Virus record (IMG/VR): IMGVR_UViG_3300009285_000021
Coordinates: 1-44,050 of that record
Length of the DNA: 44,050 bases
Reading direction: 5' to 3' (one strand)
DNA from: a virus
Within the stretch, counting starts at the first letter, position 1. The number at the start of each line of letters is the position of its first letter. Below are positions 1,976 through 37,916 of the stretch, in pieces. The notes below the pieces were generated by a model. That model worked only from the letters and a program-made list of their open reading frames with translations, did not search any database and was not told where the DNA came from. The translations under genes were made by a program, and so were the position numbers.

Positions 1976-3562
1976 ATGGCAACAAGTGAATTGAAAATAA
2001 TAATATCAGCAACAGACAAGGCAAGTCCAAGCGTTAAGAGTTTGGAATCATCTCTTGGCGGACTTGCAAAATCCGTTGTTAGTATTTACGCCTTAAAACA
2101 GGGGTTTGACTTTTTAGCGGATTCAGTTAAGAAGGCGGGAAAAGAAGAAGCAAATTTGCGGACATTACAAACAGTTATCGAAAACAACGGCCAGGCGTGG
2201 AGTGCGGTTGAAAAGAGTTTAACCTCATATATTGCTAAAGCCGAATACAATACAATGTTTACAGATGAACAGATTATACCCGCCTTAACTCAATTAGCTA
2301 CTTTCGGATTTAATGCCTCTCAATCTCAAAATGTTTTAAGCTCTGCAATGGACTTAGCAACTGCAAAGGGTTTAGATTTGCAAACATCAGTCACTTTACT
2401 TGGCAAGGCATATCAGGGAAATACTGAAACTTTGGCAAGGTATGGAATCAAGGCAAAGGACTTTAACGATCTGATGGGTCAGGTCAATTCAAAGTTTGGA
2501 GGTACGGCTCAACAGCAAATGTCTACTTACGAGGGGAATATTCATAGATTAGAAACTTCATTTGATAAACTACAAAAGACAATAGGAACTGCATTGGTGC
2601 CGTCAGTAAATAAATTTGTTTTAGCTATGGACACTTTACTCGGTGGAGGAAAAACACCAGAAGTAACGGGGGCATTAAAAACTCTTACTGAAATAAACGA
2701 AAAACATCAATTATATGTAGATATTCTTAAAGGTGAAAAAGTATTAAACAGGGAAATTATAGACGGTGAAAGTGTAAGAATAAACGGAGTAAAAGTTTTA
2801 ATCAAGGACATAAATGATAAGGCGTTTTTGCAAAAGGAAATAATACGACTTACTGATGAAGAAAAAAAAGCTGTTATTGCATTAGGGTTAGAGCAAAAGA
2901 AACAAGGAGATGAATCAAAATTATCAAAGCAACAAGAAGTTGAAGCAAATGATGACTATACTACGAGTTTATTAGACAGTGAAATATGGCTTAATTCTCA
3001 AATAGAACAGGCAGGGAAAACATTAAGGGCAAATGAACTAGAAGCGGAGAAAGTTAAAAATAACGAACTATTGCAATTAGCAGGTGCTTCATCTCAAGCC
3101 ATAACAGCTTTAGGCGTAGCAACAAACTCGGCAACGTTAAAGGGGATGGGTATTGTTATTTCAGGTGTGCAGAACGCAATCACGGCGGTTAATGCAATGA
3201 TGACTGCTTCGGGCCCTGTAGGTTTTATTCTTGGTTTACTAGGTTTTGTAACAAGTGCGGCGAATACTGTATCATCTCTTAATCAGTTAGCAGAATTAGA
3301 AAATCAAAATGCGGCGTTATTGGAAACTGGAAATACTGGTATTACGACAATAAGCAATCCTGAAACTCCCAGAACAACTACAAGTAGTAGCGGTGTATCA
3401 TCCGTAGAGAGAGCGTCAGCACCAACGTACTATACTTTCAATTCTACCTATAATATAAATGCAGGTGTAATGTTAGGGGATGAGTTTACAATATCCGAAA
3501 CATTTAAGAAGCTTATGGCGAATTTTGACCAGCAACAGAAACTAACAATGTCAGGAGCGTAA
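1976..3562 (+). CDS. Tail tape measure protein
   Basis: 528 aa, helical and Ala/Gln/Leu-rich, with a TP901-type core motif (TMFTDEQIIPALTQLATFGF...AMDLATAKGLDL). There is a hydrophobic Gly-rich segment near the C-terminus. The position after the chaperone pair fits. Confidence 0.85.
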   Translation: MATSELKIIISATDKASPSVKSLESSLGGLAKSVVSIYALKQGFDFLADSVKKAGKEEANLRTLQTVIENNGQAWSAVEKSLTSYIAKAEYNTMFTDEQIIPALTQLATFGFNASQSQNVLSSAMDLATAKGLDLQTSVTLLGKAYQGNTETLARYGIKAKDFNDLMGQVNSKFGGTAQQQMSTYEGNIHRLETSFDKLQKTIGTALVPSVNKFVLAMDTLLGGGKTPEVTGALKTLTEINEKHQLYVDILKGEKVLNREIIDGESVRINGVKVLIKDINDKAFLQKEIIRLTDEEKKAVIALGLEQKKQGDESKLSKQQEVEANDDYTTSLLDSEIWLNSQIEQAGKTLRANELEAEKVKNNELLQLAGASSQAITALGVATNSATLKGMGIVISGVQNAITAVNAMMTASGPVGFILGLLGFVTSAANTVSSLNQLAELENQNAALLETGNTGITTISNPETPRTTTSSSGVSSVERASAPTYYTFNSTYNINAGVMLGDEFTISETFKKLMANFDQQQKLTMSGA

Positions 3563-3945: not shown

Positions 3946-6900
3946 ATGGAAAACTTATTTTCAACGAGAGATACATATTCAGCGAACTTCGGAACGGAGT
4001 TAGCGAAGTCAGACGGTGGGTCAACGCCTGATTTTAAAGTATTTGTTGAGCCGAAGTCGTTTAGTGTTGATAGCTTGGTTGACTGGAACGTAGGAACATT
4101 TAACAATGTAGTAGCAGGAACAAACGGAACATTTGGAACTAACGGGAATATACAATTAGGTATTGGCACAATGTACGGCACATACACGAGTAAAATCTAC
4201 GATAGCGGATTTCATAGTAATTTTAAGCAGTTGAATATGACGGAGTTAAAGACAAATCCGAGTTGGACAAAAGAAACAAATATGGGAGTATTGCCAAGTG
4301 CTGATGGGTGGACATATAATGGCTCTGCACCCGAAGCGACATACGCCAGCGTAGCGGGTGGAATTTTAATAACGGATAGCAATACTATTGGTGGATTAAG
4401 TCAATCATCTTACTATATTGCACCAGCATTTAATAATGCAACGGGATGGACTGTTGAAGCGAAAATAAAAGTAATTTCTTATTCTGGCACACAATTTCAA
4501 CAACAATTAAGAATATCTATAAGGGATGGTGTTTGGTTGGAAAATCTTTTAATTTCTAATTTAGGAATAAAATTAAGTGTTTCTGGTGAAACTTATGCCT
4601 TTGATACAACAGACGCTTTTCATGTTTACAGAATAACAGGAATTGGAACTGTTGTAAAAGTTTATGTAGATGGAATTTTGCGATTGACTGGAACTTTAAG
4701 TTTTGCGTTGGCTTCTGATTATATGGATTTTGGGGATATATCTGCAATAAATGGCGAAAACTCCAAAGCAGAATGGAACTACATTAAATATTCAACCGCA
4801 GGTGCTTATGCTCCTGCTTTTGATAATGACAGTACTTACCCTTTTGAACCCACACAATACCAATTCCGTACAGGCACAGACGTAAGCAGTTGTGATGTGG
4901 CAACATGGAAAGCGGTTGTATCGGGAACAAGACCTGCAATAGATGACGGCGAGTTTTATCAATTCCGCATTGCATTGACAGGGGACGGCACAACATCACC
5001 CGTGGTTGACAAGGTTCAGGGAACGACACAATATAGTTTAGGTGAGCGGTTAATATCAGCACCGGAAGTCAGTCGTAGTTTAGAGAGATTATTTCAGGAA
5101 ACTCAAATCAGCTCAATCGGCATAAACCTTGACAATGCTGATGACTTCTTTAATCCTTTAGGTACAGGGTTGTATGCGGTATCTTCCGTGTATAACAAAA
5201 CAATAGAAATCTGGAAGGGTTTTAAATACGCATGGAACGGATCAACTTGGGGTACAGCCGAGTACATTCCTGCATTTACTGGCTACGTTGACAATATACA
5301 GATAGACGGTAACGGTCGGGCAGTGTTGAACGCAAGGGACAAGGGAAAGTTATTTCATATCCGAACTAGCGAAAAAGTAACAACAACTGGAACTGCGGGC
5401 GGGGCGTATTGGACAAATATTGAAATAGGATTAGCTGTTAGAAAAACGGTTGAACAAGGTGCTGGATTAGGAACTGCTGATTATTATATACAAAGTGGAA
5501 TAGTTAAAGACCATACTTTTGCACATCATTTAGATATAGATTATAGTTATGTGAATACAGGGACGACTGCTTCTATGGTAGTAAAAGACCAAAAGATTTA
5601 TTTTAGTATTGGTACGAATCTTTATGAATGGGATGATTATATTTCTGATAGTCCAAAACTAATATATCAGTTTAATTTACCGGCTCATTCCGCTTGTTCA
5701 GATGGGACATATTTGTATTATATGAAATCAAACGGAAAGAATCCTTGTTACCTTTCCCGATTTGATGGGACAACTGAAACGTTATTAGATACTTTTGGAG
5801 CAAACAGTGCAGGAACGGCGGCATTAAGAACTAATGTTGTCTTTGCGGGAACTGGAATTTATTATGCAATACAACAATTCGGGACTACATCAGGTACGGC
5901 TCATGGCATATTTTCTTATAATTCAATAACGCAAACTCACGAATGGATGTTTCATGTTAATAACGGAATTTATACTGGTGGAAGAGTTGTTGGTTCCGAT
6001 GGAAGATATTTACATGGTTTTGGAATAGGAACAAGCACATATAGACATGTTGTTTATGATACAACTATCGGAACGATAATAGGAACTTATCTTGAAACTG
6101 GAGTTGCTATAAATGAAACTGGGGCTGTATCTGGTGGGTGTAGCGTATCGGGAACAAATATTTATTCCTTTGCACCCGTTTTAAGAGATGTTGAATTTGA
6201 AAAAACAATAGAATTAAGAACATCTGCTGATTATGGGGGAACGGCGATAACTGTTTTTGAAAATGGTACGGTATCTGGCACGATAGATACAACTGGAACT
6301 TCATTTTCAAATACTATTCATGCTATATATGTCCCGCCTAACAATGTTTTAAATTTCAGATCGTCCCGATATTATGCAATACTTGGAACTTCTCAATATT
6401 CTATTGTAACTTATTCAGACGAATATCAAGGACATATTGGAACTTTTGAAACAGGTAATGCCGATTATGTCGCTGATGTTTTGCAAAATCTTGCAAAAGA
6501 TACAAATTATGTTCAGTTTATAGATGAAGCCGGTAAATTTAATTTCGTAAATCGAGATAGTGGAACTGTAATAAGACACTCATTTGATGCTGATGATATT
6601 ATAACTGTGGGATGTGTCAAGGGCGATAATGTTTCTTCTGCTGAAATAATAAATCACATAGTTTGGGGAACAGCAACAGGTACTGTGTCTTATGACGACC
6701 TTCCGTCACAAGGTACTTACGGCGTACAGTCGTTTCAATATCAAAGTAAATATGTATCAAATGGTACGTTAGCAAACGATATTATTTATGGAATGATAAG
6801 AGCCTTTGCTTATCCTAAAGCGGTTATATCGGCAAAGTTGAGATATTATCCTGTTGTTAAGCTTTTCGATGTATGCGGTTTGGATTACTCAAGATTAAAT

Positions 6901-7013: not shown

Positions 7014-7511
7014 ATGATAAAAACAAATCAAAAAGGATCTAATAATTACAATTGGAAGGGTGGGAAAGTAAGTAGGACATGCTTAACGTGTGGAAGTGTA
7101 TTTTATATTTATAAGTCAAGTCTTAATAAAATAAAAAAGGGAGTAAAGGGGAAATATTGTTCTCGTAAATGTTATGGAACTGCTTTATCTAAAAGACAAA
7201 CAGGGGATAAGCATTGGAATTGGAGAGGTGGACTTAGCAAAAATTACACTACAACTTTTGAGTGGAAACAAATAAGATTAAGTATAATAAAAAGAGATAA
7301 TAATAAATGTCGTATTTGCGAAAGTGAAGAAAGATTACAAGTCCATCATATAGTACCATATCGTATAACTCAAGATAACTCTGAGGGAAATTTAATAACA
7401 CTTTGTTTGTCCTGTCACAACAAAGAAGAATGGAGTTATTATAAGAGCAAAAAAGGGCAAATGACCTTTAGTTTTATTAAAGATTGGAGAAGGTTAAATG
7501 CAAAAATATAG
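7014..7511 (+). CDS. HNH homing endonuclease
   Basis: It carries NWKGG/NWRGG repeats and Zn-ribbon CxxC pairs. The HNH core reads CRIC...VHHIVPY...NLITLCLSCHNKEE. Confidence 0.85.
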   Translation: MIKTNQKGSNNYNWKGGKVSRTCLTCGSVFYIYKSSLNKIKKGVKGKYCSRKCYGTALSKRQTGDKHWNWRGGLSKNYTTTFEWKQIRLSIIKRDNNKCRICESEERLQVHHIVPYRITQDNSEGNLITLCLSCHNKEEWSYYKSKKGQMTFSFIKDWRRLNAKI

Positions 7512-7773
7512 GGGGATAGAAATAGAATCTATGACAATACAGCAGAAGCAAAGTATATCGAAGCTTGTAACGAATTTAATTGTTATCAGTATAGTAAGCA
7601 TTATTATCTGGCTTACGGGGTTGGCAATAAATAAAGGTGATACGGCAATAGCCAAAGCCAACGAGATTGAAAAGGTGCAAGTGGCTCAATCGGAATGTAA
7701 CAAATACATTGTTGAAACAATGAAAGAGATTAAAGATGACGTTAAAGAAATCAAAAGGGAAATGAAAAAATGA
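7498..7773 (+). CDS. Single-pass membrane protein (holin/antiholin candidate)
   Basis: 91 aa with one hydrophobic helix (LVTNLIVISIVSIIIWLTGLAI) and a charged coiled C-terminus. It lies at the head of the lysis cassette. Confidence 0.45.
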   Translation: MQKYRGIEIESMTIQQKQSISKLVTNLIVISIVSIIIWLTGLAINKGDTAIAKANEIEKVQVAQSECNKYIVETMKEIKDDVKEIKREMKK

Positions 7774-7970
7774 AAAAATTCTTTAATTCAAAGACAAACA
7801 ACGCCTGCTTCATTGTTTTCTGTGCTTCGTTCCCTATGGCGTATTTACTCAAGGGAACTTTTGCAGAATGGGTTAGTTTAATGATTACCTTACTGGGTGT
7901 TATCGGAGTAAAGAACTCGGTACAAAGTTATGTTGATACAAAAAAGAAACCGCCAGAGGTTAATATATGA
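7770..7970 (+). CDS. Two-TM holin candidate
   Basis: 66 aa with two hydrophobic segments and a basic C-terminus (KKKPPEVNI). The start overlaps the previous stop (ATGA). Confidence 0.5.
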   Translation: MKKFFNSKTNNACFIVFCASFPMAYLLKGTFAEWVSLMITLLGVIGVKNSVQSYVDTKKKPPEVNI

Positions 7971-8137
7971 AACAAAAGATGTGCAGTAATTGCGAAACAA
8001 GCGGATGTACTGTATCGGTGTATGTAGGTGAGCTAGTATGTTGTCCGAGAAAGACAACTTTTCGGGAACAGCGAAAACAAGAAAAATCGCTTGAAACGCC
8101 TGATATAGTAAAGTCGTTTAGAGGGCAAAAACAGTGA
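7967..8137 (+). CDS. Small Cys-rich protein (56 aa), too short to be listed in the ORF track
   Basis: Read by hand. The ATG overlaps the TGA of the previous gene, and the sequence is MKQKMCSNCETSGCTVSVYVGELVCCPRK... ending at the TGA at 8135-8137. Confidence 0.4.
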   Translation: MKQKMCSNCETSGCTVSVYVGELVCCPRKTTFREQRKQEKSLETPDIVKSFRGQKQ

Positions 8138-8193
8138 AACACGAAACCGCTCTAGGATTGATTTAAACGAGGGCTAGGGCAAAAGAGGTATAT

Positions 8194-8574
8194 ATGGCTA
8201 AAGAGGACGTAAATAGAGAGTTAACGGGGTTAAAACCAGAATTACAGGAATTGGTTAAAAAGATATATTCTAATATTATAGTTTACAATCGTTTACCTAT
8301 GGACATGTTCGAGGGAATTAGAAGCCAGGAACGTCAACAGTGGTTGTATGATAATAAATATTCGCAAACATTAAACTCAAATCATAAAGACGGGTCAGCC
8401 GTTGACTTTGTTTATTGCTTAGACAACAAATGGAGTTGGGACCCGTCAGTAATACATTACTTTGACTTTTTAGGCGAAAGAGTGTTAGAATTATATGGCG
8501 ATAAAATTGAGTGGGGTGGAAAATGTTTTGGTAGCTTTATCGACAAACCACATTTTCAATTGAAGAGGAAATAA
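8194..8574 (+). CDS. Endolysin, peptidase M15 (VanY / L-alanyl-D-glutamate peptidase-like), with no cell-wall-binding domain
   Basis: The SxHxxGxAxD motif is present (SNHKDGSAVD), and the C-terminal motif is DKPHFQ. The protein is 126 aa and the gene has an AAGAGG RBS. Confidence 0.75.
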   Translation: MAKEDVNRELTGLKPELQELVKKIYSNIIVYNRLPMDMFEGIRSQERQQWLYDNKYSQTLNSNHKDGSAVDFVYCLDNKWSWDPSVIHYFDFLGERVLELYGDKIEWGGKCFGSFIDKPHFQLKRK

Positions 8575-8672
8575 TGGAAACTTTAGAGATAATTTGGAAA
8601 ACAATTATAATATTTTTCGGTGCATTGATAGTCAGTATAGCTGACTGGTTTACACAGAACAGGAGAAAATAA
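8574..8672 (+). CDS. 32-aa single-TM peptide, too short to be listed in the ORF track
   Basis: Read by hand. It starts at a TAATG overlap and reads METLEIIWKTIIIFFGALIVSIADWFTQNRRK. Confidence 0.35.
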   Translation: METLEIIWKTIIIFFGALIVSIADWFTQNRRK

Positions 8673-8687
8673 CAATGGAGAAAAACA

Positions 8688-9362
8688 ATGAAAAAAATAT
8701 TAAGTATACTTTTAGTGACCTTCCTATGCTTGTTAAGTTTAGGGATGACAAAACAATATCAACCAGTAGACCTTGTGGAGTTGTGGAAGTCGGCAGTTAT
8801 GGAAAATCGGCAGTTGAAACAACAAAACTCGGATTTACGTCTACAGATAGCGGAATACCGGTTAGCAGATAAAAACGATAAGATTGCTTTATTCCCTATG
8901 AAATATTATAGAGAGCAGGGATATTTTAAAGCGGACAATCATTATGCAAGAGATCCTGAACACTTTAGAAAGGTTTGGAGTTATTGTCAGAAGTATCAAT
9001 ACTTATTAGGTCCGGAAGTAAGAGAAATATGCAAGAAACAAGATATAGACCCTGTTAAGTTTGCGTTCACGTGGAGCCACAAAGAATCTCACTACTCACC
9101 CTTAGTTGTCAATGTAAACAAAAACGGTACTAGGGACTGGGGAATGAATCAGATAAATGATTGCGTTTGGGATATTCTTTATGTTCAACTACCAGAGAAT
9201 CTAAAGAAGATTAAAAATCCTAAAACAGATACCGAAATTAGTGTTTGCATGTTGTACCTTTGGATGTCAGATAGAACAAAAAATAAAATGTCTTGGTGCT
9301 TTTTAAATGATGAGAGTTGGACGATTTACTGGTTTATCGGGGAGATTGAGAGAAATGGGTAA
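8688..9362 (+). CDS. Secreted or membrane-anchored lytic transglycosylase (SLT domain)
   Basis: The N-terminus is a hydrophobic signal (MKKILSILLVTFLCLLSLG). The SLT-type motifs ES(H)YSP...NGTRDWGMNQIN are present. Confidence 0.7.
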   Translation: MKKILSILLVTFLCLLSLGMTKQYQPVDLVELWKSAVMENRQLKQQNSDLRLQIAEYRLADKNDKIALFPMKYYREQGYFKADNHYARDPEHFRKVWSYCQKYQYLLGPEVREICKKQDIDPVKFAFTWSHKESHYSPLVVNVNKNGTRDWGMNQINDCVWDILYVQLPENLKKIKNPKTDTEISVCMLYLWMSDRTKNKMSWCFLNDESWTIYWFIGEIERNG

Positions 9363-9651
9363 GCGTTTAGAGTATACACCGAACTCAAAGATAAGAGCAA
9401 ACTTACGTCAATTGTTTTTACGTTCTCGTGAGCGTGGGAACGCAATTAAAAGGGATAAATACACCTGTCAATGTTGCGGAAGAAAACAATCAAAGGCAAT
9501 CGGTAAAGAATTTAAAGTACAGGTTCATCATAAGGAAGGCATACTCAACTGGGATAAACTTTTTCTAGCAGTCAGAGAGTATTTACTTTGCAATCCTGAT
9601 TTACTTGAAACACTATGTGAAGAGTGTCATGGCAAAAAGGGGAAACAATGA
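9355..9651 (+). CDS. Small HNH endonuclease
   Basis: Motifs CQCCG...VHHKEG...CEECHGKK. I chose the ATG at 9355 over the track start at 9307 because it minimises overlap with the SLT gene. Confidence 0.7.
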   Translation: MGKRLEYTPNSKIRANLRQLFLRSRERGNAIKRDKYTCQCCGRKQSKAIGKEFKVQVHHKEGILNWDKLFLAVREYLLCNPDLLETLCEECHGKKGKQ

Positions 9652-10130
9652 AAGATAAAATACTATATTCATGTTTAGGAATTGTAGCAGGTTTAATTGT
9701 CGGATATTTTGCACTTCCGAAAGTACCAGACGTTAAGATTATAACTGAAACAAAAGTCTTAACCAAAACGGTTATGGTAAATAAAGACCGTGTTATAGAC
9801 CGTGAAACAATAAAATATAAAGACGGTACAGTTAAGATAGTTGAGCATGAAGTTGTCAAAGATAAGATAATTGAGAAAGAAGTTATCAAAGACAAAATAG
9901 TTGAAACAATAAAATATGACAAGACAGCGTTCCTTTTTCTAAACGTAGGTTTCGGAGTAGGGGTAAGCCCGAATATCTTAGCCCCGTCAAAAGATATAAT
10001 TATAAATTACGAAAATTGCAGTGTTGGAATTGCCGTCAATTTACGTCCTTATATTATTTCGCTTGACTACCAACACGTCAATAATTATCCTGACATAGTC
10101 GGAATTAAAGTTAGCATACCGATACTCTAG
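9648..10130 (+). CDS. N-terminally anchored membrane protein with a charged repeat and a beta-rich C-terminal half (spanin-like or lysis accessory candidate)
   Basis: ATGA overlap at 9648. The TM helix is LYSCLGIVAGLIVGYFAL. There is a tandem E(H/K)EV(V/I)KDKI(I/V)E repeat. It is the last gene of the late strand block. Confidence 0.5.
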   Translation: MKDKILYSCLGIVAGLIVGYFALPKVPDVKIITETKVLTKTVMVNKDRVIDRETIKYKDGTVKIVEHEVVKDKIIEKEVIKDKIVETIKYDKTAFLFLNVGFGVGVSPNILAPSKDIIINYENCSVGIAVNLRPYIISLDYQHVNNYPDIVGIKVSIPIL

Positions 10131-10149
10131 GAATAAAACACCTTATTCC
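10130..10149 (+). terminator. Weak hairpin at the end of the lysis cassette
   Basis: The stem ggaataa / ttattcc has 7 bp and a 6-nt loop. There is no clear T-run, so terminator function is uncertain. Confidence 0.3.
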
Positions 10150-10236
10150 GCATTAAATAATTAAGCATAAAACCCTTTAAATATATAGCTTTTGTATTAT
10201 ATCTCGATATATTCACATTAAAATATAATATTCCAC

Positions 10237-10265
10237 TTGACAAATAAACCGACTTCGTGTATAAT
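10237..10265 (+). promoter_or_regulatory. Consensus sigma70/sigmaA-type early promoter (TTGACA-17-TATAAT)
   Basis: TTGACA lies at 10237-10242, followed by a 17-nt spacer ending in gtg and TATAAT at 10260-10265. It sits in a 125-nt AT-rich intergenic gap. Confidence 0.75.
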
Positions 10266-10271
10266 CCTAGT

Positions 10272-10595
10272 ATGAAAAGAATGTGTTCGTGGTGCAAAAA
10301 AGATTTAGGATTCAAGGAGCCGATGTCCGATAATAGCATTACTCATGGTATGTGTGATGACTGCCTAAAAAAATTCAAGGAGGGAAAAAAAGTGATAACT
10401 AATTCTTGCGTTGGGAATATAGTGCCAGATAGTTTAGTTAGGGATTACGAGCTGACACTTGAGGAAATGTCAGACAGGGAAGAACAAGATTGGATTGATA
10501 CTCACTGTGGGGACTGTGATACTGAATTGGATGAGGACGGTCAGTGTCCGAAGTGTCCGAAGTGTACGGAAAATTACAAATACGGAGGGATATAA
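10272..10595 (+). CDS. Double Zn-ribbon early protein, possibly translated from a leaderless mRNA
   Basis: The ATG lies 6 nt after the -10 hexamer. Cysteine pairs are CSWC...CDDC and CGDC...CPKCPKC. Confidence 0.55.
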   Translation: MKRMCSWCKKDLGFKEPMSDNSITHGMCDDCLKKFKEGKKVITNSCVGNIVPDSLVRDYELTLEEMSDREEQDWIDTHCGDCDTELDEDGQCPKCPKCTENYKYGGI

Positions 10596-10765
10596 TGGAC
10601 TTACAAAAGTTTATGAAAGTAAGTGAGCGGTATTTGAGCCACGATCCGCTGGCGGTTATTGCGGATAAGAACAAGCATTTCTTTTATTATATTCAGGATG
10701 TATTGAAACAAGATAGGACGGTTAAAATTCAGAAAGACCCGAAAGGGACAAGGAGGATTGCATGA
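10595..10765 (+). CDS. Hypothetical early protein (56 aa)
   Basis: TAATG overlap with a GGAGGG RBS 6 nt upstream. I preferred this start to the track start at 10544. Confidence 0.45.
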   Translation: MDLQKFMKVSERYLSHDPLAVIADKNKHFFYYIQDVLKQDRTVKIQKDPKGTRRIA

Positions 10766-11136
10766 AAAATGTACTGGTTGATAGTGTTGTGATTGAAGGT
10801 CGGGAATATGTGCCAAAGGATAGCGTAAAAAAAATGGCGATTGATTGTGAGGGGAAAAAGTATCAGATAGTCAGGGCGTATGGAGCGGGCGTATTTGCAG
10901 GATATGTCATTGAAAGAAAAGGGCAAGAAGTTGTAATGGTAAAAGCCAGACGTTTATACTATTGGGATGGAGCGTCAAGTTTATCTCAATTGGCAATGGA
11001 GGGAGTTAAAAAACCTCTGAACTGTAAATTTCCTTGCGAAGTTGAAAAAGTAGAATTACTACAGGTTATAGAAATTTTAGATTGTACAGAGGAGGCAAAG
11101 AAAAGTATTCAGGAGGTAAAAGTATGGGAACAGTAA
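10762..11136 (+). CDS. Hypothetical early protein (124 aa)
   Basis: ATGA-coupled ORF. The conserved-looking core is RAYGAGVFAGY...ARRLYYWDGASSLSQLA. I cannot assign a family with certainty. Confidence 0.6.
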   Translation: MKNVLVDSVVIEGREYVPKDSVKKMAIDCEGKKYQIVRAYGAGVFAGYVIERKGQEVVMVKARRLYYWDGASSLSQLAMEGVKKPLNCKFPCEVEKVELLQVIEILDCTEEAKKSIQEVKVWEQ

Positions 11137-11432
11137 AAGATAACGGCGACGGCTACGGCGACGGCTCCGGGAATGGCTCCGGCTACGGCGACGGCTCCGG
11201 GAATGGCTACGGCTCCGGCTACGGTTACGGCTACGGCTCCGGCTACGGCGACGGCTCCGGCTACGGCTACGGCTCCGGCGACGGCGACGGCTACGGCTAC
11301 GGCGACGGCTCCGGCTACGGCTACGGCTACGGCGACGGCTACGGCGACGGCGACGGCTCCGGCTACGGCGACGGCTCCGGCTACGGCGACGGCTACGGCG
11401 ACGGCTCCGGCTACGGCTCCGGGAATGGTTAA
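11124..11432 (+). CDS. Acidic (X-Gly)48 dipeptide-repeat protein, with X = Tyr, Asp, Ser or Asn
   Basis: AGGAGG lies at 11111-11116, 7 nt before the ATG at 11124. The product is MGTVKD followed by 48 perfect X-G dipeptides (19 Y, 13 D, 12 S, 4 N) with no basic residue in the repeat. Confidence 0.6.
   Translation: MGTVKDNGDGYGDGSGNGSGYGDGSGNGYGSGYGYGYGSGYGDGSGYGYGSGDGDGYGYGDGSGYGYGYGDGYGDGDGSGYGDGSGYGDGYGDGSGYGSGNG
11142..11429 (+). repeat. Hexanucleotide tandem array GGC-(TAC/GAC/TCC/AAT-like), visibly GC-rich
   Basis: About 288 nt built from ggctac / ggcgac / ggctcc units, with an occasional gggaat. The composition contrasts sharply with the AT-rich flanks. Confidence 0.95.
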
Positions 11433-11522
11433 AAACAAGGAAGCGATTAATTTCATTATCGCAAAATTACTGTCAGAAGGCAATGGGAGTAGAATAGATA
11501 CCTGCTCCCCAGAGGAGAAGCA

Positions 11523-11729
11523 ATGGCAAAGAAAAAAGAGTTGAGAGGTAGACCTAAGAAACAAAATAACTTAGTTTCGGTAACAAGCAATATAGCGGTA
11601 GAAGAAAGGGAAGGTGTGGCAAGAATATCGGCATTAAATCGTGCAAGTATGTCGGGAGTGATACGAGAGGCAATAGTGGCACATTTAATCAAATTCGGGA
11701 TGATGTATGACAATCGGGAGGGAAGATAA
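11523..11729 (+). CDS. Ribbon-helix-helix (CopG/Arc-like) DNA-binding protein
   Basis: 68 aa with a basic N-terminus (KKKELRGRPKK), then a beta-strand (VSVTSNIAV) and two helices (ARISALNRASMSGVIREAIVAHL). Confidence 0.6.
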   Translation: MAKKKELRGRPKKQNNLVSVTSNIAVEEREGVARISALNRASMSGVIREAIVAHLIKFGMMYDNREGR

Positions 11730-12847
11730 TGACAGATATAAACGCATTGGCAGTTGTAGACCAGCAACAGATAAATAATCTCACAATAAAGGAAGTTAAG
11801 GAGTTATGGTGTCCTTTAGTTTCAGACAAGGAATTCGGATTGTTTATAGGAATATGTAAATCTTTCGGGTTGAATCCATTTAAACGAGAGGTTTATATAA
11901 TAAAATATTCGGCAAGTTCTCCGGCTTCAATTGTTGTTGGGTATGAGGTATATCTCAAACGTGCAGATCGTACAGGAAAACTTGATGGGTGGAACGTTGT
12001 AATAGTAGATTCAGATACGGACAACGAAAGAGCTGTTATAACTATCTTTCGCAAGGATTTTAAAAATCCGTTTATCTGGGAGTGCTACAAAAAAGAAGTA
12101 GCGAAACAACAGGCAAACTGGAAATCAATGCCGATATTCATGCTTAAAAAGGTAGCAATCGGACAGGGTTTTCGTTTAGCGTTTCCTGATGAAATGGGTG
12201 GACTTCCGTATGTACAAGAGGAAATAGTACAAGAGGAACATACAGCGAAACCGTCTTTTACGCAACACAAAACAACGGCAACGGATATAACTCCAGAACC
12301 GAAACAAGAAGTCAAAGAAGATATCAACGCTCCTGTTTGCAATGATGAACAAATTGCCACTATCAACGCTCTTGTTGCTGTAAGTCCGAAATCAAAAGAA
12401 GTAGGTGACTGGATATGTTCGGCGTACAAGGTGGATTTTTTCGCCCAGTTGTCTTATGACAAAGCGGAAAAGATTATAGCTATTCTTGAGCAAAAACAAA
12501 AAGAATTGAAAGACAAGATGACTACCGAAGCAGAAGCAAAGAAAGAAGAACCTAAATCCGAAGAACCATCTGTAGACCCATCAGAGGATCAAGGACACAA
12601 GGAAAAACCTTCCACACCGAAAGGCGATAAAGTAATGTCTGATAAGCAAAAGTCAACAATAGAAAAAATGCTTAAGCATTACAAAGACAAGGCAGAAGGC
12701 AAAAAGGCATTGCTTGTTGTCGGCGAGGGTGGCAAGAGTTTTGAAACTTTGACAATAGGACAGGCGAGTAATATCATCAAGAAACTCGGTGAGCAAATTA
12801 AGAAGGATACGGAAGCGAGGAAACAAGATGACGCAAATAATCCTTAA
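11729..12847 (+). CDS. recT: RecT/Bet-family single-strand annealing protein with an acidic/lysine-rich C-terminal extension
   Basis: The N-terminal 170 aa carry GLNPFKREVYIIKY...VVGYEVYLKRADRTGKLDGW...MLKKVAIGQGFRLAFPDE, typical of RecT/Bet. An exonuclease gene follows. Confidence 0.75.
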   Translation: MTDINALAVVDQQQINNLTIKEVKELWCPLVSDKEFGLFIGICKSFGLNPFKREVYIIKYSASSPASIVVGYEVYLKRADRTGKLDGWNVVIVDSDTDNERAVITIFRKDFKNPFIWECYKKEVAKQQANWKSMPIFMLKKVAIGQGFRLAFPDEMGGLPYVQEEIVQEEHTAKPSFTQHKTTATDITPEPKQEVKEDINAPVCNDEQIATINALVAVSPKSKEVGDWICSAYKVDFFAQLSYDKAEKIIAILEQKQKELKDKMTTEAEAKKEEPKSEEPSVDPSEDQGHKEKPSTPKGDKVMSDKQKSTIEKMLKHYKDKAEGKKALLVVGEGGKSFETLTIGQASNIIKKLGEQIKKDTEARKQDDANNP

Positions 12848-13475
12848 TAAAGACAAGCACGAATACACAGTGGATAAGGTTGTATATCCCTCCGTAAGTC
12901 AGATACTTGCGGAGTTAGGATTTATCAATCTAAGGGCTGTACCAACTCATGCACTTGAAGAAGGTCGGGCAAGGGGTACTGAAGTCCATGCAATCTGTGA
13001 AAGTTTTGATCGGGGAATATTGGCAGTTGAAACAATAGATGAAAGGTTGGTAGGTTATTTTAAGTCATGGCTATTGTTTGTTAAAGAATATAAGCCAGAG
13101 TTTTTAGAGATTGAAAAAATGGTGTTTAGCAAAAGTTGGGGATATTGTGGGTGCATTGACAGGGTGGCTCGTATCAACGGAAAATTATACATAGTTGATA
13201 TTAAAACAAGCCAGTACAAATCCCCTTCTCACGAGATACAAACTGCTCTTTATAAAACCGCTTATGAAGAGTTTACCAAAAACAAGATAAACGGATTAAA
13301 GACCGGTCGTTGGATTATTGTATTATCTCCGGAAGGAAAAATGGCAAAGGTAGTTGAACACGATAAATTAACAGACTTCACAACAGCAATATCGGCGGTG
13401 ATAGTTTATAACTGGAAGAAACGGAATAAACTTACGGCAGATTTAGATTATAATGCGGAGTTATTCTCATTTTAG
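12828..13475 (+). CDS. PD-(D/E)XK recombination exonuclease (YqaJ/Cas4-like fold)
   Basis: It begins H.YTVDG-like and carries RGTEVH, then CIDRV...YIVDIKTS (the D..(D/E)xK motif). The ATG at 12828 has a GAGGAA RBS. Confidence 0.7.
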   Translation: MTQIILNKDKHEYTVDKVVYPSVSQILAELGFINLRAVPTHALEEGRARGTEVHAICESFDRGILAVETIDERLVGYFKSWLLFVKEYKPEFLEIEKMVFSKSWGYCGCIDRVARINGKLYIVDIKTSQYKSPSHEIQTALYKTAYEEFTKNKINGLKTGRWIIVLSPEGKMAKVVEHDKLTDFTTAISAVIVYNWKKRNKLTADLDYNAELFSF

Positions 13476-13484
13476 GAGGAAACA

Positions 13485-14165
13485 ATGTCAAATGAAACAG
13501 TAAGTGTAGCACCTATAGCAAGTAATGTAGCAGATGAAGCAACAAAGACAGCAGAAGTAGCATTGACACAGGCAAGGGGTATTGTCATAGCAAACGTAGA
13601 ACAATATACCAATGCCGGTACGGAGTTGCTAAAGGTTAAGAAGTTTTTAAAGGACTTAGAGGTCGAACGGAAAAAAATCACGGATCCGCTAACAAAGGCA
13701 AAAGAAGCTGTAATGGCGTTCTTCAATACTCCGAAAGACAACGCAACAAAGGCAATGAACATAATAGCCGGTGCAATGCAAACTTATGATGATAAGAAAG
13801 CGGAAGAAGCCCGAAAGGAAAATGCACGTCTATCGGAAATAGCAAGAAAAGAATCGGAGAAGTTATCGGAAAAAGCACGGAAAGCAGAAGAGTCTGGAAA
13901 TTTGGAAAAAGCGGAAGAACTTAAAAGACAGGCTTTAATGAAAGAAACAATAGTGCCTTCCGTATCTGCTGAACCTGTTAAGATTGCCGGATTAGCGTCC
14001 AGAGAAAATTGGACTTACGAAATTACGGATATTAACCTTGTCCCTCGTGAGTACCTTTGTGCTGATGAAAAAAAGATAGGTGCAGTAATCCGTGCTACAA
14101 AAGGTACTTTGTCTATACCTGGAATTAAGGCAATAAAAGAAACTAAAATAGGTGGAAGTCGGTAA
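13485..14165 (+). CDS. Coiled-coil recombination/replication-module protein of unknown function
   Basis: 226-aa ORF with a GGAGGA RBS. The centre is Lys/Glu-rich. Family not assigned. Confidence 0.5.
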   Translation: MSNETVSVAPIASNVADEATKTAEVALTQARGIVIANVEQYTNAGTELLKVKKFLKDLEVERKKITDPLTKAKEAVMAFFNTPKDNATKAMNIIAGAMQTYDDKKAEEARKENARLSEIARKESEKLSEKARKAEESGNLEKAEELKRQALMKETIVPSVSAEPVKIAGLASRENWTYEITDINLVPREYLCADEKKIGAVIRATKGTLSIPGIKAIKETKIGGSR

Positions 14166-19100: not shown

Positions 19101-19886
19101 TTGAAATTAGAAGAAATGATAAACAAAGTACATTGTGCGGAATGCTTGGAGTTTATGAAACAGATACCCGATAAGTCAATAGATATGGTCCTAACTTCTC
19201 CACCTTATGATAATTTAAGAGATTATAGTGGTTATACTTTTGATTTTGAAGGTATAGCAAAAGAATTATTTAGAATTATTAAAGAGGGTGGTGTTTGTGT
19301 TTGGATTGTAGGAGATGCAACAGTTGACGGAAGCGAAACGGGAACAAGTTTTAAACAAGCATTGTATTTTAAAGAGATAGGATTTAGATTACACGATACA
19401 ATGATATATCAAAAAAACAGTTATCCATTCCCTCCTACAAATAGATATTTTGGGGTGTTTGAATATATGTTTATTTTATCTAAAGGTTCTCCAAAAACAA
19501 CAAACATGATAAAAGTCAGAACTATAGGTGCAAAACACAAATCATCAACACAAAGACAATCAGACGGTTCTACAACTTCAATGAAATATGAAATGGGAAA
19601 AGATGAGAGGGTTAGGGATAATGTTTGGGTTTACGACGTTGGTTATGGGAAATCTTCAAATGATAAATCCGTTTTTTTTCACCCCGCAACATTTCCCGAA
19701 AAATTAGCGAAAGAGCATATAATATCTTGGTCCGATAAAGACGATTTAGTTTTAGATTGTTTTAATGGTAGTGGAACAACATCTTTATGCTGTAAAAATT
19801 TCGGTAGAAAGTTTATCGGGATTGAAATTAGTCCTGAATATTGCAAAATCGCAGAAGACCGTCTAAGGCAGGAGGTATTGTTTTGA
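19101..19886 (+). CDS. Orphan DNA methyltransferase (beta-class N4-cytosine/N6-adenine, SPPY type)
   Basis: Motif IV is DMVLTSPPY near the N-terminus, and motif I is DCFNGSGTT near the C-terminus. No partner restriction enzyme is visible. The start is either the TTG at 19101 or the ATG at 19116. Confidence 0.85.
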   Translation: MKLEEMINKVHCAECLEFMKQIPDKSIDMVLTSPPYDNLRDYSGYTFDFEGIAKELFRIIKEGGVCVWIVGDATVDGSETGTSFKQALYFKEIGFRLHDTMIYQKNSYPFPPTNRYFGVFEYMFILSKGSPKTTNMIKVRTIGAKHKSSTQRQSDGSTTSMKYEMGKDERVRDNVWVYDVGYGKSSNDKSVFFHPATFPEKLAKEHIISWSDKDDLVLDCFNGSGTTSLCCKNFGRKFIGIEISPEYCKIAEDRLRQEVLF

Positions 19887-20410: not shown

Positions 20411-21094
20411 ATGATTAAAACCTGTCCAACATGTAAAAAAGAATTCCATTCTGTTTTTAAACATTGCTCTGTTAAATGTTCAAAAAGTATTATTCATCAA
20501 GCAACAAGACGAAAAATGAGTTTAGCAAAAAAAGGTAAAATGCCAAAATTCATACCCGATAATCACGGAAGACATCACTCTTTAGAAACAATAGAGAAAA
20601 TGAGAAAATCGAGCTACTGGAAAGGAAAACATCTTCCAAAAGAAATGGTACAGAGGATGAAAGGTAGAGTTGTAACAGATGAAACAAGAAGAAAAATAGG
20701 GTTATCTTCAAAGGGGAGAAGACACACAGAAGAGCAAAAAAGAAAAATAGGTTTAAAATCTATTGGTAACAAATATGGGTGGAAAGGCGGATTGACTCCC
20801 GTATACACACTGATTAGGTGTAGTTTGAAATATTCAGAATGGCGACAGAAGGTATTTACAAGGGATATGTTTACTTGCATGGATTGTGGAGATAAAACAG
20901 GTGGTAATTTAGAAGCACATCACGTAAAATCTTTTTCAGTTTTAGTAAAAGAGTCAGAAACTTATTTTCCATTATTAAACCTTTACGATTCATCTATGTT
21001 GTATAGCCCTCTTTGGGATATTGACAACGGTAAGACATTGTGCGAGAAATGTCATAGAAAATATTTTAAAAATACAAGTAAGGTGAGGCAATGA
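20411..21094 (+). CDS. HNH homing endonuclease with NUMOD3-like repeats
   Basis: Three repeats of the H(S/T)xExxxK(M/I) type are present. The HNH core reads CMDCG...EAHHVKSF...NGKTLCEKCH. It is a paralogue of 23355-24062. Confidence 0.85.
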   Translation: MIKTCPTCKKEFHSVFKHCSVKCSKSIIHQATRRKMSLAKKGKMPKFIPDNHGRHHSLETIEKMRKSSYWKGKHLPKEMVQRMKGRVVTDETRRKIGLSSKGRRHTEEQKRKIGLKSIGNKYGWKGGLTPVYTLIRCSLKYSEWRQKVFTRDMFTCMDCGDKTGGNLEAHHVKSFSVLVKESETYFPLLNLYDSSMLYSPLWDIDNGKTLCEKCHRKYFKNTSKVRQ

Positions 21095-36812: not shown

Positions 36813-37916
36813 ATGGCGGATAAAAAAGCAAGAGAGATTAGTATAATACAATCACCAATATTATTCTCAATACCTGAGGGAAAAAAGTTTGTTAAGGAAG
36901 TTATAACCGAGGGTGAGTATTGTCATCCTCAAAACAAAAGTAAGCAGATGAATATGACGGTTGAGAGATTTCAGGAATGGGTAAACAACTTCAAAAAGAA
37001 ATTGGTTGATATTGTTTACGTACCGTTTAATCATTCGGATCATCCGTTAGACAATACAGGATTCATTGATGATTTGTATATCGGAGATTCCGAAACAAAG
37101 CCAGGAAAGAAAGCGTTATTTGCAAAGTTTAATATTGTACTTGATGAGGTTGCGTCAAAAATTGGAAAGACGATACTTGGTAATTCTATCGGGGTGGAGA
37201 GATTCTTTAGTCCCGAAACTGGGGAGGATATGGGCGAGGTTATGGGTCATATAGCTTTGACCAATGAGCCGTATATACCTCACTTGGGTGAATTCCGAGC
37301 GGTTGCATTTTCTAAAGACGCTAACGTCAATATTACTAACTACGTTATGGAGCGACAAGCTGATAACAATCATGCGGAGGATTCAAATATGACAAACGAA
37401 GAGATTTTAAAAATGCAGGAGAAGATGTTGGAACTGGAAAGGAAAGCGAAAGATGCGGAAGCAAGTGCAGAAATGTCCCGCAAAGAAAAAGAATTTGAAG
37501 CCGAAAAAGTGAAGAAAATGGAAGTAGTAGCTTTTGAGCGAGATGTGGATTCCGAGATGACTAAGCTAGTACTTTCAAAGAAATTGCTTCCGGCTGAAAA
37601 AGATTCAGAGGTAAAGTTTGCAATATCTCTTGGCAGGGAGAAAGCGTCCGAGTACATCAATAAACTTGCTAAGAAAGCGGATGTGGTAGAGTTTGGTAAC
37701 AAAGCTTCTGGGAGTGTAGACAATCAGGCCGGAAGTACGGAGAAGCCGAAAATGTCAGAACTGACATCAATATTCACGGGGTTCATTCTCAAGAAACATT
37801 CCAAAGAGCAGGCGTTTGAAATGTGCAAGGACTGGGAGAAAAGATATACCCTTGCGAAATCCCACGTTGATGACAGGGATGTATCGGTTAAATTTACTCG
37901 TAACAAAACTTGGTAG
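36813..37916 (+). CDS. Prohead protease / scaffold protein (Mu gpI/gpZ-like arrangement)
   Basis: It lies between the portal and capsid genes. The N-terminal globular half carries PFNHSDHP...HIALTNEPYIP. The C-terminal half is a Glu/Lys coiled coil. Confidence 0.6.
   Translation: MADKKAREISIIQSPILFSIPEGKKFVKEVITEGEYCHPQNKSKQMNMTVERFQEWVNNFKKKLVDIVYVPFNHSDHPLDNTGFIDDLYIGDSETKPGKKALFAKFNIVLDEVASKIGKTILGNSIGVERFFSPETGEDMGEVMGHIALTNEPYIPHLGEFRAVAFSKDANVNITNYVMERQADNNHAEDSNMTNEEILKMQEKMLELERKAKDAEASAEMSRKEKEFEAEKVKKMEVVAFERDVDSEMTKLVLSKKLLPAEKDSEVKFAISLGREKASEYINKLAKKADVVEFGNKASGSVDNQAGSTEKPKMSELTSIFTGFILKKHSKEQAFEMCKDWEKRYTLAKSHVDDRDVSVKFTRNKTW

Follow-up and report, generated by a model that had tools for sequence, protein, structure and literature searches.

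A strictly alternating X-Gly repeat protein encoded just after a DUF6948 gene in a widespread phage cassette

A GC-rich hexanucleotide array lies within the AT-rich genome of a virus (IMG/VR record IMGVR_UViG_3300009285_000021), and the question is whether this array is a genuine protein-coding gene and, if so, what kind of protein it encodes. The window analyzed here is the whole stretch of 44,050 nucleotides, positions 1 to 44,050 of that record, and the promoter match, the two cassette genes and the array are on the plus strand. A sequence-only reading had proposed an early, acidic repeat protein in an anti-defence layout. The observation itself is confirmed, whereas its interpretation is only partly supported. 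The repeat gene is the second half of a conserved two-gene cassette, a point which that reading missed.

The repeat gene and its array

The open reading frame at 11124-11432 begins with an ATG at 11124-11126, ends with a TAA at 11430-11432, and encodes 102 amino acids (9.5 kDa, calculated pI about 4). After MGTVKD it consists of 48 uninterrupted X-Gly dipeptides, of which 19 are YG, 13 DG, 12 SG and 4 NG. The only basic residue is K5, and the net charge is -13. A Shine-Dalgarno sequence, AGGAGG, is present at 11111-11116, 7 nt before the ATG. The underlying array at 11142-11429 contains 48 hexanucleotide units of the form NNC-GGC: 18 TACGGC, 13 GACGGC, 9 TCCGGC, 3 TCCGGG, 2 AATGGC, and one each of AACGGC, TACGGT and AATGGT. 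Tandem repeat detection with TRF reports the array at 11143-11422. The GC content is 0.71 for the ORF and 0.74 for the array, against 0.37 for the window. The ORF uses GGC 43 times, TAC 19 times, GAC 13 times and TCC 12 times, whereas in 26 other long ORFs of the window these codons account for only 14%, 36%, 34% and 9% of their respective amino acids. The only other run of at least four X-Gly dipeptides in all six frames of the window is 8 residues long, at 37223, and chance is therefore excluded. An ENA assembly of the same groundwater run (SRR2177362) has identical DNA across the ORF, while a Logan contig ends inside the array. The exact 102-residue product is not on record, because the ENA gene caller chose another frame.

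The gene was also described as the fourth after the strongest early promoter, which is plausible. The only perfect TTGACA-17-TATAAT match in positions 7500-13000 is at 10237-10265, and it is followed by ORFs at 10257, 10544/10577, 10762 and 11124. On the basis of this consensus match alone, it is the likely promoter of the operon containing the cassette. In contrast, the proposed RHH regulator encoded at 11523-11729 found no support. Searches of Pfam (up to E 0.5), PHROGs, NCBIfam and PDB sequences gave no hit and no recognizable RHH signature, although the sequence pattern is compatible with one. A megablast search of positions 9000-14000 against GenBank phages gave no match. Searches with the X-Gly protein in Pfam, PHROGs, NCBIfam and PADLOC returned only compositional hits below threshold, to a TrAA12 linker and a serine-rich protein.

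A conserved two-gene cassette

The gene immediately upstream, at 10762-11136, encodes a 124-residue DUF6948 protein (Pfam PF22253; 99.7 bits against a gathering threshold of 27 bits, E 1e-28, covering profile positions 2-85 of 85). This family has 2435 representatives at 50% identity. The ATG of the X-Gly gene lies 13 nt inside the end of the DUF6948 gene, an overlap the sequence-only reading did not notice. In this overlap (11124-11136) the ATG is formed by the Val-Trp codons (GTA TGG) near the end of DUF6948, the X-Gly gene is in the -1 frame, and the Shine-Dalgarno sequence falls within the DUF6948 codons for Q-E-V. The identical -13 overlap is found in 68 of 86 viral junctions and in 53 of 75 junctions from genomes or MAGs, whereas an SD-like motif is present in only 29 of the 86. 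This layout suggests translational coupling. A programmed -1 frameshift producing a DUF6948-XG fusion was considered and rejected as the main route, since the 13-nt overlap has no slippery heptamer and an ATG is conserved at the junction, although it is not excluded as a minor product. An apparent N-terminal leader, M-[EGAD]-x-[VIL], is explained by the overlap with the W-x-x-stop codons of DUF6948 and is not an independent signal.

The same layout recurs widely. Of 80 IMG/VR loci found with DUF6948, 77 carry an X-Gly ORF directly after it. So do all 8 GenBank phage matches, with the hosts Iodobacter, Vibrio, Ralstonia and Chlorobiaceae plus uncultured phages, and about 75 of 75 assessable genome or MAG loci from many phyla. 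Cultivable carriers of the cassette are Ralstonia phage NK-7, Iodobacter phage PhiPLPE and Vibrio phage IKEMa6-1. In the reverse direction, of 97 viral loci found with a 24-nt unit of the repeat and having enough upstream sequence, 72 in one analysis and 80 in another have DUF6948 directly upstream. In total, positional homologues were found in more than 200 loci. We define a family of DUF6948-linked X-Gly repeat proteins, made almost entirely of in-register X-Gly dipeptides (X mostly S, Y or D) and starting at or near the stop codon of a DUF6948 gene. The window's ORF, with 48 of 48 dipeptides in register and its ATG at -13, belongs to it. The family median in-register Gly fraction is 0.94. 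Two loci, however, have a non-repeat protein at the same -13 position.

No third gene is conserved. BLAST clustering of genes directly downstream of the repeat ORF found no cluster larger than 2 loci. Among all flanking genes there were only loose associations with an AAA ATPase (11 loci, upstream in 10 of them), a methylase, VRR-NUC and exonucleases. Neighbors across the loci include DnaB, SSB, RecT, exonucleases, RusA, VRR-NUC, HTH regulators and Lar. An acr-aca operon requires a conserved downstream HTH or RHH regulator, which is absent here, and so the anti-defence layout proposed from the sequence alone fails.

Comparison of the arrays shows that selection acts on the amino acid pattern and not on the DNA. 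Within an array, the dominant codon takes 0.98-1.0 of each amino acid. Across arrays, however, Gly is GGC in 69%, GGT in 18%, GGA in 7% and GGG in 6%, and Tyr and Asp are about 50/50 C- or T-ending. In the closest relative, whose DUF6948 neighbor is 89% identical, the same kind of peptide is written with entirely different codons, GGC/TAC/TCC/GAC becoming GGG/TAT/TCT/GAT. Conservation of the frame in relatives had been set beforehand as a test of the coding hypothesis, and the frame is conserved. Each array appears to descend from one founder hexamer, and length varies between near-identical relatives. The proposal that the array arose by expansion and varies in length is thus supported.

The predicted barrel and a possible partnership

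An AF2 model of DUF6948 (pLDDT 88.5) shows an Sm/LSm-like SH3-type barrel with five core strands, a helix inserted between strands 3 and 4, and a C-terminal helix. The top 50 Foldseek hits in the PDB are almost all Sm/LSm proteins, but with weak E-values of 0.02-0.09, target-normalized TM scores of 0.5-0.68 and query-normalized TM scores of 0.35-0.47. Sequence comparison does not support the assignment. Alignment of the DUF6948 profile with Archaeoglobus fulgidus Sm1 by hhalign gave a probability of 0.3% and E 0.23, there was no Pfam LSM or Hfq hit, and no Sm, LSm or Hfq chain was among the PDB sequence-profile hits, all of which were insignificant (best E 0.018). The residues R38, R63, R64, W68 and K89 are invariant or nearly so and could form a binding surface.

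The existence of the cassette, the position of the second gene within the end of the first, the nature of its product as an acidic (Y/D/S, with minor N/F/H)-Gly polypeptide almost free of Lys and Arg, and selection on the amino acid pattern with change in array length are established by this comparative sequence analysis. What the proteins do is inferred, as are their translation, their binding to each other and any binding of nucleic acid by DUF6948. Our best guess, which is tentative and unproven, is that the two proteins are made together by translational coupling and work as one unit. The X-Gly chain would be an intrinsically disordered, multivalent, acidic-aromatic tail or ligand of the barrel protein, encoded as a separate polypeptide. 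It would bind the conserved Arg/Trp/Lys surface through Asp-Arg and Tyr-Arg/Trp contacts. In doing so it would either compete with single-stranded nucleic acid on that surface, as the acidic C-terminal domain of Hfq does on its Sm ring, or tether or bridge barrel oligomers. In the variant found in gut phages it would link an extra effector domain to the barrel. In this view, the cassette acts early, within the replication/recombination gene block.

Several lines of evidence are consistent with this proposal beyond the linkage itself. Rare in-frame DUF6948-XG fusions exist (two were found), and three other DUF6948 proteins carry fused acidic Gly/Ser/Asp-rich tails. In the AF2 model of a gut-phage partner protein, the X-Gly segment has a pLDDT below 50 between confidently folded parts, and in that family the repeat varies from 6 to about 45 dipeptides next to a conserved domain. 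This C-terminal domain gave no functional clue, as it has no Pfam, PHROG or PDB sequence hit and no fold match (best Foldseek E 0.5). Other considerations weigh against the proposal. The evidence for an interaction is indirect. DUF6948 is nearly neutral (median pI 7.6, net charge +1) and not strongly basic like an obvious partner for a polyanion, which led us to reject an electrostatic coacervate. X-Gly arrays also occur fused to unrelated small domains, including DUF7666 and a "GAC"-motif domain, so the repeat has some function that does not require being the product of the gene after DUF6948.

The closest precedent is Hfq, the bacterial Sm protein. Its acidic C-terminal domain mimics nucleic acid on the Sm core (PMC5606850), and Acinetobacter baumannii Hfq has a functional Gly/aromatic tail of GGFGGQ repeats plus an acidic tip (PMC11617691). 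In both Hfq and the cassette as modeled, a small Sm-type barrel is combined with a Gly-rich, aromatic-containing, acidic, disordered repeat chain of variable length; in Hfq that chain binds back onto the basic or aromatic core, and the rare fusions have the same architecture as Hfq. In the phage cassette, however, the tail is normally a separate polypeptide, inferred to be translationally coupled, with a strict period of 2, and it is far longer relative to the core. DUF6948 shows no sequence similarity to Hfq or Sm, lacks the N-terminal helix, has extra helices, and is phage-borne. Like the cassette as modeled, eukaryotic SmB, SmD1, SmD3 and LSm4 associate an Sm core with an X-Gly dipeptide repeat, their C-terminal Arg-Gly/Gly-Arg tails serving as multivalent ligands for small barrel (Tudor) domains. 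Those tails are of opposite charge (Arg versus Asp/Tyr/Ser), fused, methylation-dependent and part of the eukaryotic snRNP.

A broader and more speculative version, which is possible but unlikely, is that X-Gly arrays are a modular peptide tag and DUF6948 is its dedicated small-barrel reader. Together they would form a phage-specific protein-recruitment or nucleic-acid-mimicry system, conserved across phages of most bacterial phyla, which organizes early replication/recombination proteins or strips host proteins from single-stranded nucleic acid. It would be the first natural, selected dipeptide-repeat protein family described in prokaryotic viruses, and would evolve in an unusual way, the array being repeatedly rebuilt from one hexamer while only its composition is kept.

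Alternative explanations and significance

DNA mimicry, condensate formation and Tyr cross-linking, all raised by the sequence-only reading, remain possible, but nothing specific supports them. Among the alternatives, the one that survives best, although it is unlikely, is a self-assembling low-complexity scaffold. The chain would act mainly through homotypic interactions, either FUS-like [G/S]Y[G/S] stickers driving a condensate or silk-like beta-sheets or fibrils with all X side chains on one face. The assembly would concentrate X-Gly-tagged phage proteins and DUF6948 at a replication or recombination site, with DUF6948 as a client, nucleator or chaperone. The strict period of 2 with about 19-25% aromatic X is in its favor, as are the freely varying repeat number and the tandem second copies of X-Gly ORFs in some loci (three were recorded). 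The same kind of array is attached to at least four unrelated small phage domains at the N- or C-terminus, as expected for a shared targeting or association tag. Aromatic residues are slightly more evenly spaced than in shuffles (mean z -0.4; 80% of arrays below 0), but this signal is weak and confounded by the tandem-duplication history. About a quarter of X positions are Asp (family median net charge -9), which opposes homotypic association unless cations or basic partners neutralize it. The scaffold also does not by itself explain the near-obligate, overlapping linkage to DUF6948, and it has no biophysical support.

Comparison with known low-complexity proteins is mixed. As in FUS-type prion-like domains and high-glycine-tyrosine keratin-associated proteins, the composition is dominated by Gly, Ser and Tyr, with GYG and SYG motifs, roughly even spacing of Tyr and conservation of composition rather than sequence. 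All 19 Tyr residues of the window's protein are flanked by Gly. Those eukaryotic proteins, however, are not strict period-2 repeats, contain Gln/Asn/Pro (or Cys) and have few acidic residues, whereas the window's protein has 14 Asp in 102 residues and no Gln. Silk fibroin shares the strict Gly-X alternation, with Ser and Tyr among the X residues, and evolution by repeat expansion. Silk X is mostly Ala/Ser and uncharged in very large secreted proteins, while here X is 27% Asp and 40% Tyr, and Ala is about 1% across the family. GenBank names the Ralstonia phage NK-7 homologue "fibroin heavy chain-like protein", but this reflects a compositional match only and there is no homology. The C9orf72 dipeptide-repeat proteins (poly-GA, -GR, -GP) also arise from a length-unstable hexanucleotide array with all frames open. 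They are pathological products of non-AUG translation of one unit type, whereas here the gene is a selected, AUG-initiated phage gene with mixed X residues.

An anti-defence or anti-nuclease decoy is less likely. In this view the chain mimics DNA or ssDNA, with Asp carboxylates about 7 A apart on an extended chain and Tyr in place of bases, and blocks a host nuclease (RecBCD/AddAB or a restriction enzyme) or another defence protein, as Gam, Ocr and ArdA do. The protein is small, acidic and likely expressed early. In the window it is encoded just upstream of RecT and two exonuclease-like genes, the position that Gam holds relative to bet and exo in lambda. One relative has a Lar restriction-alleviation gene nearby, and rapid turnover of the array is compatible with an arms race. 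However, there was no hit in PADLOC and no similarity to any known mimic in the family searches. Known DNA mimics are folded proteins with fixed charge patterns, whereas here only composition is conserved and the repeat segment is modeled as disordered. Adjacency to RecT or an exonuclease is seen in only a minority of loci, and occurrence in phages of very many phyla argues against a target specific to one defence system.

A toxin-antitoxin-like or self-regulating pair, in which an SH3-type barrel (as in the Kid/CcdB/MazF folds) modulates growth and a protease-labile X-Gly protein neutralizes it, is very unlikely. Two small overlapping genes, one for a predicted barrel and one for an acidic chain predicted to be disordered, would fit, and the pair occurs in prophages within bacterial chromosomes. 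Nevertheless, no toxin or antitoxin model was hit in Pfam or PADLOC, the fold hits are to Sm/LSm rather than CcdB or MazF, there is no DNA-binding domain for autoregulation, in-frame fusions of the two parts exist, and the gut-phage variant adds a large conserved domain to the putative antitoxin.

The least likely view, raised in part from the sequence alone, is that the array works as nucleic acid (a G-rich structure, recombination hotspot or slippage-based switch) or is untranslated; although all six frames are open, GG recurs every 6 nt as a continuous G2-tract motif and one automatic annotation called a different frame, it is largely refuted because relatives keep X-Gly while third positions of both codons vary (other frames would read Ala-Thr, Val-x, Asp/Glu-x or Gly-x in different phages), a start codon sits at -13 in 121 of 161 junctions, the ORF ends within a few codons of the array's end in most loci, in-frame fusions to folded domains exist, G3 tracts occur only in arrays using GGG codons so that G-quadruplex potential differs between arrays, and Rfam gave no match with E up to 1 in positions 10000-12500 on either strand.

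Literature searches on DUF6948, on the repeat peptides, on fibroin heavy chain-like phage proteins and on glycine-tyrosine repeats in phages found no relevant publication, and the repeat family is apparently undescribed. This is despite its scale. In addition to the DUF6948 representatives, the related gut-phage partner family has more than 5,000 clusters at 90% identity, and the cassette spans phages and prophages of Proteobacteria, Firmicutes, Bacteroidota, Acidobacteria, Chlorobi, Planctomycetes, CPR bacteria and others, yet it has no name and no known function. The repeat gene is often unannotated, called in the wrong frame or lost at contig breaks, and these arrays break metagenomic assemblies and mislead gene callers. 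The family is a clean natural example of selection on composition and periodicity alone, with concerted evolution of the underlying DNA. If the two proteins act together as proposed, this would be a new way for phages to use an intrinsically disordered dipeptide-repeat chain, which would act as a nucleic-acid mimic, a multivalent ligand or a condensate scaffold together with a predicted Sm-like barrel.

The repeat ORF and its surroundings

The ORF is exactly as the sequence-only reading described it. It starts at the ATG at 11124, stops at the TAA at 11430-11432 and encodes 102 aa, consisting of MGTVKD followed by 48 uninterrupted X-Gly dipeptides (19 YG, 13 DG, 12 SG and 4 NG). An AGGAGG motif lies at 11111-11116, 7 nt upstream of the ATG. 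The array uses GGC 43 times, TAC 19 times, GAC 13 times and TCC 12 times, whereas in 26 other long ORFs of the window these codons make up only 14%, 36%, 34% and 9% of their amino acids. The GC content is 0.71-0.74, against 0.37 for the window. The only other run of at least four X-Gly dipeptides in the six frames of the window is 8 residues long, so chance is excluded. The window comes from a groundwater metagenome (SRR2177362), and an ENA assembly of the same run (contig L178) has identical DNA across the ORF, while a Logan contig (L179) stops inside the array. The ENA gene call for this phage (window 11173-11544, + strand; L178 3155-3526) picks the +2 frame across the array, giving a 123-aa product (MAPATATAPGM...) instead of the X-Gly frame, and the exact 102-aa product is therefore not on record. 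All six frames are open over the array, including a 151-aa ORF on the minus strand (11109-11564).

The only perfect sigma-70 consensus in 7.5-13 kb is at 10237-10265, three ORFs upstream. The first ORF after this consensus promoter (10257-10595) is Cys-rich, with CxxC pairs resembling a zinc ribbon, and has no family hit. Further upstream, a 30-nt tandem repeat (2.4 copies, 9833-9904) encodes KDKIIEKEVI-type repeats in an ORF (9624-10130) that begins with a hydrophobic segment. Downstream of the array, the ORF at 11523-11729 had been labelled a ribbon-helix-helix (RHH) regulator. This 68-aa basic protein looks like an RHH protein by eye (…SMSGVIREAIVAHL…), but the label could not be confirmed by any family or PDB-sequence search, and the ORF is not conserved next to the cassette in relatives. 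Elsewhere, the window has three separate HNH-type endonuclease genes (7014-7511, 9307-9651 and 20411-21094), one of them with NUMOD3 motifs, a DNA methylase gene at 19101-19886 and a Peptidase_M15_4 endolysin-like gene at 8194-8574.

A two-gene cassette with DUF6948

The sequence-only reading missed that the ATG lies 13 nt inside the end of ORF 10762-11136, in the -1 frame relative to it. That ORF is a clear DUF6948 protein (PF22253, E 1e-28). We searched for DUF6948 elsewhere and examined the gene that follows it. All 8 GenBank phage matches (Iodobacter PhiPLPE, Vibrio IKEMa6-1, Ralstonia NK-7, Chlorobiaceae CV-1-33 and four uncultured phages) have an X-Gly ORF directly after DUF6948. In PhiPLPE (EU876853), a cultured and published phage, this ORF (1173-1409 of the extracted locus, after gp84) is not annotated at all, and in NK-7 (1781-2194 of the extracted locus) it is named 'fibroin heavy chain-like protein'. 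Among the 80 best of 556 IMG/VR loci, 76 have a separate X-Gly ORF, 1 has an in-frame fusion, 2 have a different protein at the same position and 1 is truncated. The different protein, at loci L067 (2851-3204) and L075 (2851-3192), is a Cys-rich non-repeat protein of 113-117 aa at the same -13 overlap, and it retains a vestigial HGYGYD. Of 80 genome or MAG loci from many phyla, some inside 4-Mb chromosomes (prophages), about 75 of 75 assessable loci carry the X-Gly ORF. In the reverse direction, a 24-nt unit of the repeat found at least 120 viral contigs, and of the 97 with enough upstream sequence, 72 (strict) to 80 (including weak hits) have DUF6948 directly upstream.

No other neighbor is conserved. 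The surrounding genes are the usual early/replication-recombination set, namely DnaB, SSB, RecT, exonucleases, RusA, VRR-NUC, HTH regulators and Lar. In one prophage-like relative (L172/L174, about 6550-6600), a GC-rich hairpin followed by a T-run lies directly after the X-Gly stop codon, and the cassette lies just after a divergent gene boundary. This arrangement is compatible with an immediate-early operon that ends at the cassette. Some loci carry a second, tandem X-Gly ORF with the same short leader (L016, 2827 and 3150-3446; L072, 2848 and 3110-3301; L001, 2770-3066 and 2789-3307), for example MASINNG... twice in L016, which indicates duplication of the whole repeat gene.

The X-Gly start is an ATG exactly 13 nt before the end of the DUF6948 stop codon in 68 of 86 viral junctions and in 53 of 75 genomic junctions. 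It is created by the codons for [Val/Ile]-Trp (GTA/ATA TGG). An SD-like motif is present in only about one third of the junctions, although the window has a strong one. This geometry is typical of translational coupling. Residues 2-4 of the repeat protein (M-[EGAD]-x-[VIL]) are dictated by the overlap, so the protein has no real leader and is essentially pure repeat. Loci without the -13 overlap often lack the Trp as well, which suggests that the end of DUF6948 and the start of its partner constrain each other.

Conserved reading frame and changing DNA

Within an array, one codon takes 98-100% of each amino acid, but the choice of codon differs between arrays. Across 84 arrays, Gly is encoded by GGC (69%), GGT (18%), GGA (7%) and GGG (6%), Tyr by TAC (50%) and TAT (50%), Asp by GAC (51%) and GAT (49%), and Ser by TCY (89%) and AGY (3%). 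In the other frames these arrays would encode different peptides in different phages, and only X-Gly is common to all of them. The closest relative of the window, with a DUF6948 that is 89% identical, encodes MGTVENSGDGAGYGSGSG... with GGG/TAT/TCT/GAT where the window uses GGC/TAC/TCC/GAC. In 51 of 54 arrays the Tyr, Asp and Ser codons share the same third base. The X repertoire (Y, then S, D, F, N, H and C) is exactly Tyr plus its one-step codon neighbors. Each array therefore appears to descend from one founder hexamer (TAY-GGN) by duplication and point mutation, and arrays are replaced wholesale over short evolutionary distances. Four of these residues (Y, D, N and H) are the amino acids read by queuosine-modified tRNAs, although this may be a coincidence.

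The length of the array is unstable. Pure repeat proteins range from 29 to 149 aa, with a median of 84. Two gut-phage proteins with 104/108 identical flanks differ by a 58-residue indel inside the repeat, and two samples of one phage differ by a single Tyr-to-Ser change. Metagenomic contigs of close relatives end 60-130 nt into the array (L088, L089, L090, L091 and L179) or carry a run of N there (L173/L093). These arrays break assemblies, so copy numbers in short-read assemblies should be treated with caution. The findings confirm the earlier suggestion that the array expanded by slippage, and they argue against the alternative that the nucleic acid itself is functional. A search of Rfam also found nothing. 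Across the family the composition is Gly 43%, Ser 18%, Tyr 11% and Asp 11%, with Lys and Arg at about 1% each. The median net charge is -9 and the pI is about 4, while the window protein has a net charge of -13 and a mass of 9.5 kDa. There is a weak directional preference of S to Y to D to S, that is, for SGYGDG units, and aromatic residues are slightly more evenly spaced than in shuffles.

The partner protein and a possible mechanism

The AF2 model of DUF6948 is confident (pLDDT 88.5) and shows five strands forming a small barrel, a helix inserted after strand 3 and a C-terminal helix. A Foldseek search of the PDB returned almost only Sm/LSm proteins in the top 50, but with weak E-values (0.02-0.09) and a target-normalized TM of 0.5-0.68. 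Against viral models it found other DUF6948 proteins and some 'Sm-like' phage proteins. A profile-sequence comparison with an archaeal Sm protein was not significant. We therefore call the protein Sm-like in predicted fold only. Invariant or near-invariant residues include R38, R63, R64, W68 and K89, and the protein is near neutral. The family has 2,435 representatives at 50% identity with E of 1e-3 or better.

Fusions provide evidence that the two parts belong together physically. A complete DUF6948 is fused in frame with an X-Gly tail in locus L053 and protein P0387, and other DUF6948 proteins (P0376, P0463 and P0508) carry fused acidic Gly/Ser/Asp-rich tails. In gut Clostridia-type phages the partner gene sits at the same -13 position and encodes a short N-terminal helix (MEKIKEFL), an X-Gly repeat of 6 to about 45 dipeptides and a conserved domain of about 155 aa (motifs FAHGETL, WHHRLTGSC.MGR and YGG). 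This variant is found at L002 (2770-3291), L003 (2267-2836), L132, L142, L147, L158, L159, L162, L163, L165, L168 and L170 and in proteins P0241-P0360, and it forms more than 5,380 clusters at 90% identity. In its confident AF2 model, the repeat is the only segment with pLDDT below 50. The conserved domain has no family, PDB-sequence or PDB fold match, so it may be a new fold. The same kind of X-Gly array is also fused at the N- or C-terminus to at least four other small uncharacterized phage or bacterial domains, including DUF7666 (P0126, P0133, P0136 and P0143), a 'GAC'-motif domain (P0121, P0124, P0148, P0151, P0229, L219 and L271) and a C-terminal Trp-rich domain (P0131, L180 and L270), with further cases at L251 and L260. 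The repeat behaves as a mobile module.

The comparative data establish a conserved, overlapping gene pair, selection on a strictly alternating acidic/aromatic/Ser-Gly chain, concerted evolution and length instability of the array, recurrent fusion of the two parts, and an early/replication-recombination genomic context. That the two products are made together and act as a unit, that the repeat chain is disordered and multivalent, and that it binds the Arg/Trp surface of the barrel are inferences. The best-documented analogue is Hfq, whose acidic disordered C-terminal domain binds the basic Sm core and mimics nucleic acid (PMC5606850). In Acinetobacter baumannii that domain contains functional GGFGGQ repeats (PMC11617691). 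By this analogy, which serves as a working model only, the X-Gly protein would be a detached tail or ligand of an Sm-like barrel. We hold this view tentatively, as somewhat less likely than not, although it is favored over each alternative. A homotypic scaffold or condensate is possible but unlikely, and an anti-defense DNA mimic is less likely still. A toxin-antitoxin-like pair is very doubtful, and a nucleic-acid element is the least likely of all. A remainder of the probability is assigned to none of these readings. The interpretation offered from sequence alone is supported only in part.

No paper mentioning DUF6948 or these peptides was found in the literature searched, which was incomplete, so this absence is not proof that none exists. 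Judged against the criteria for Sm/Hfq proteins (at the sequence level), acr-aca operons, DNA mimics, silk and FUS-like domains, the gene qualifies as a member of none of them. We therefore regard the cassette, whatever its function may be, as lying outside described systems.
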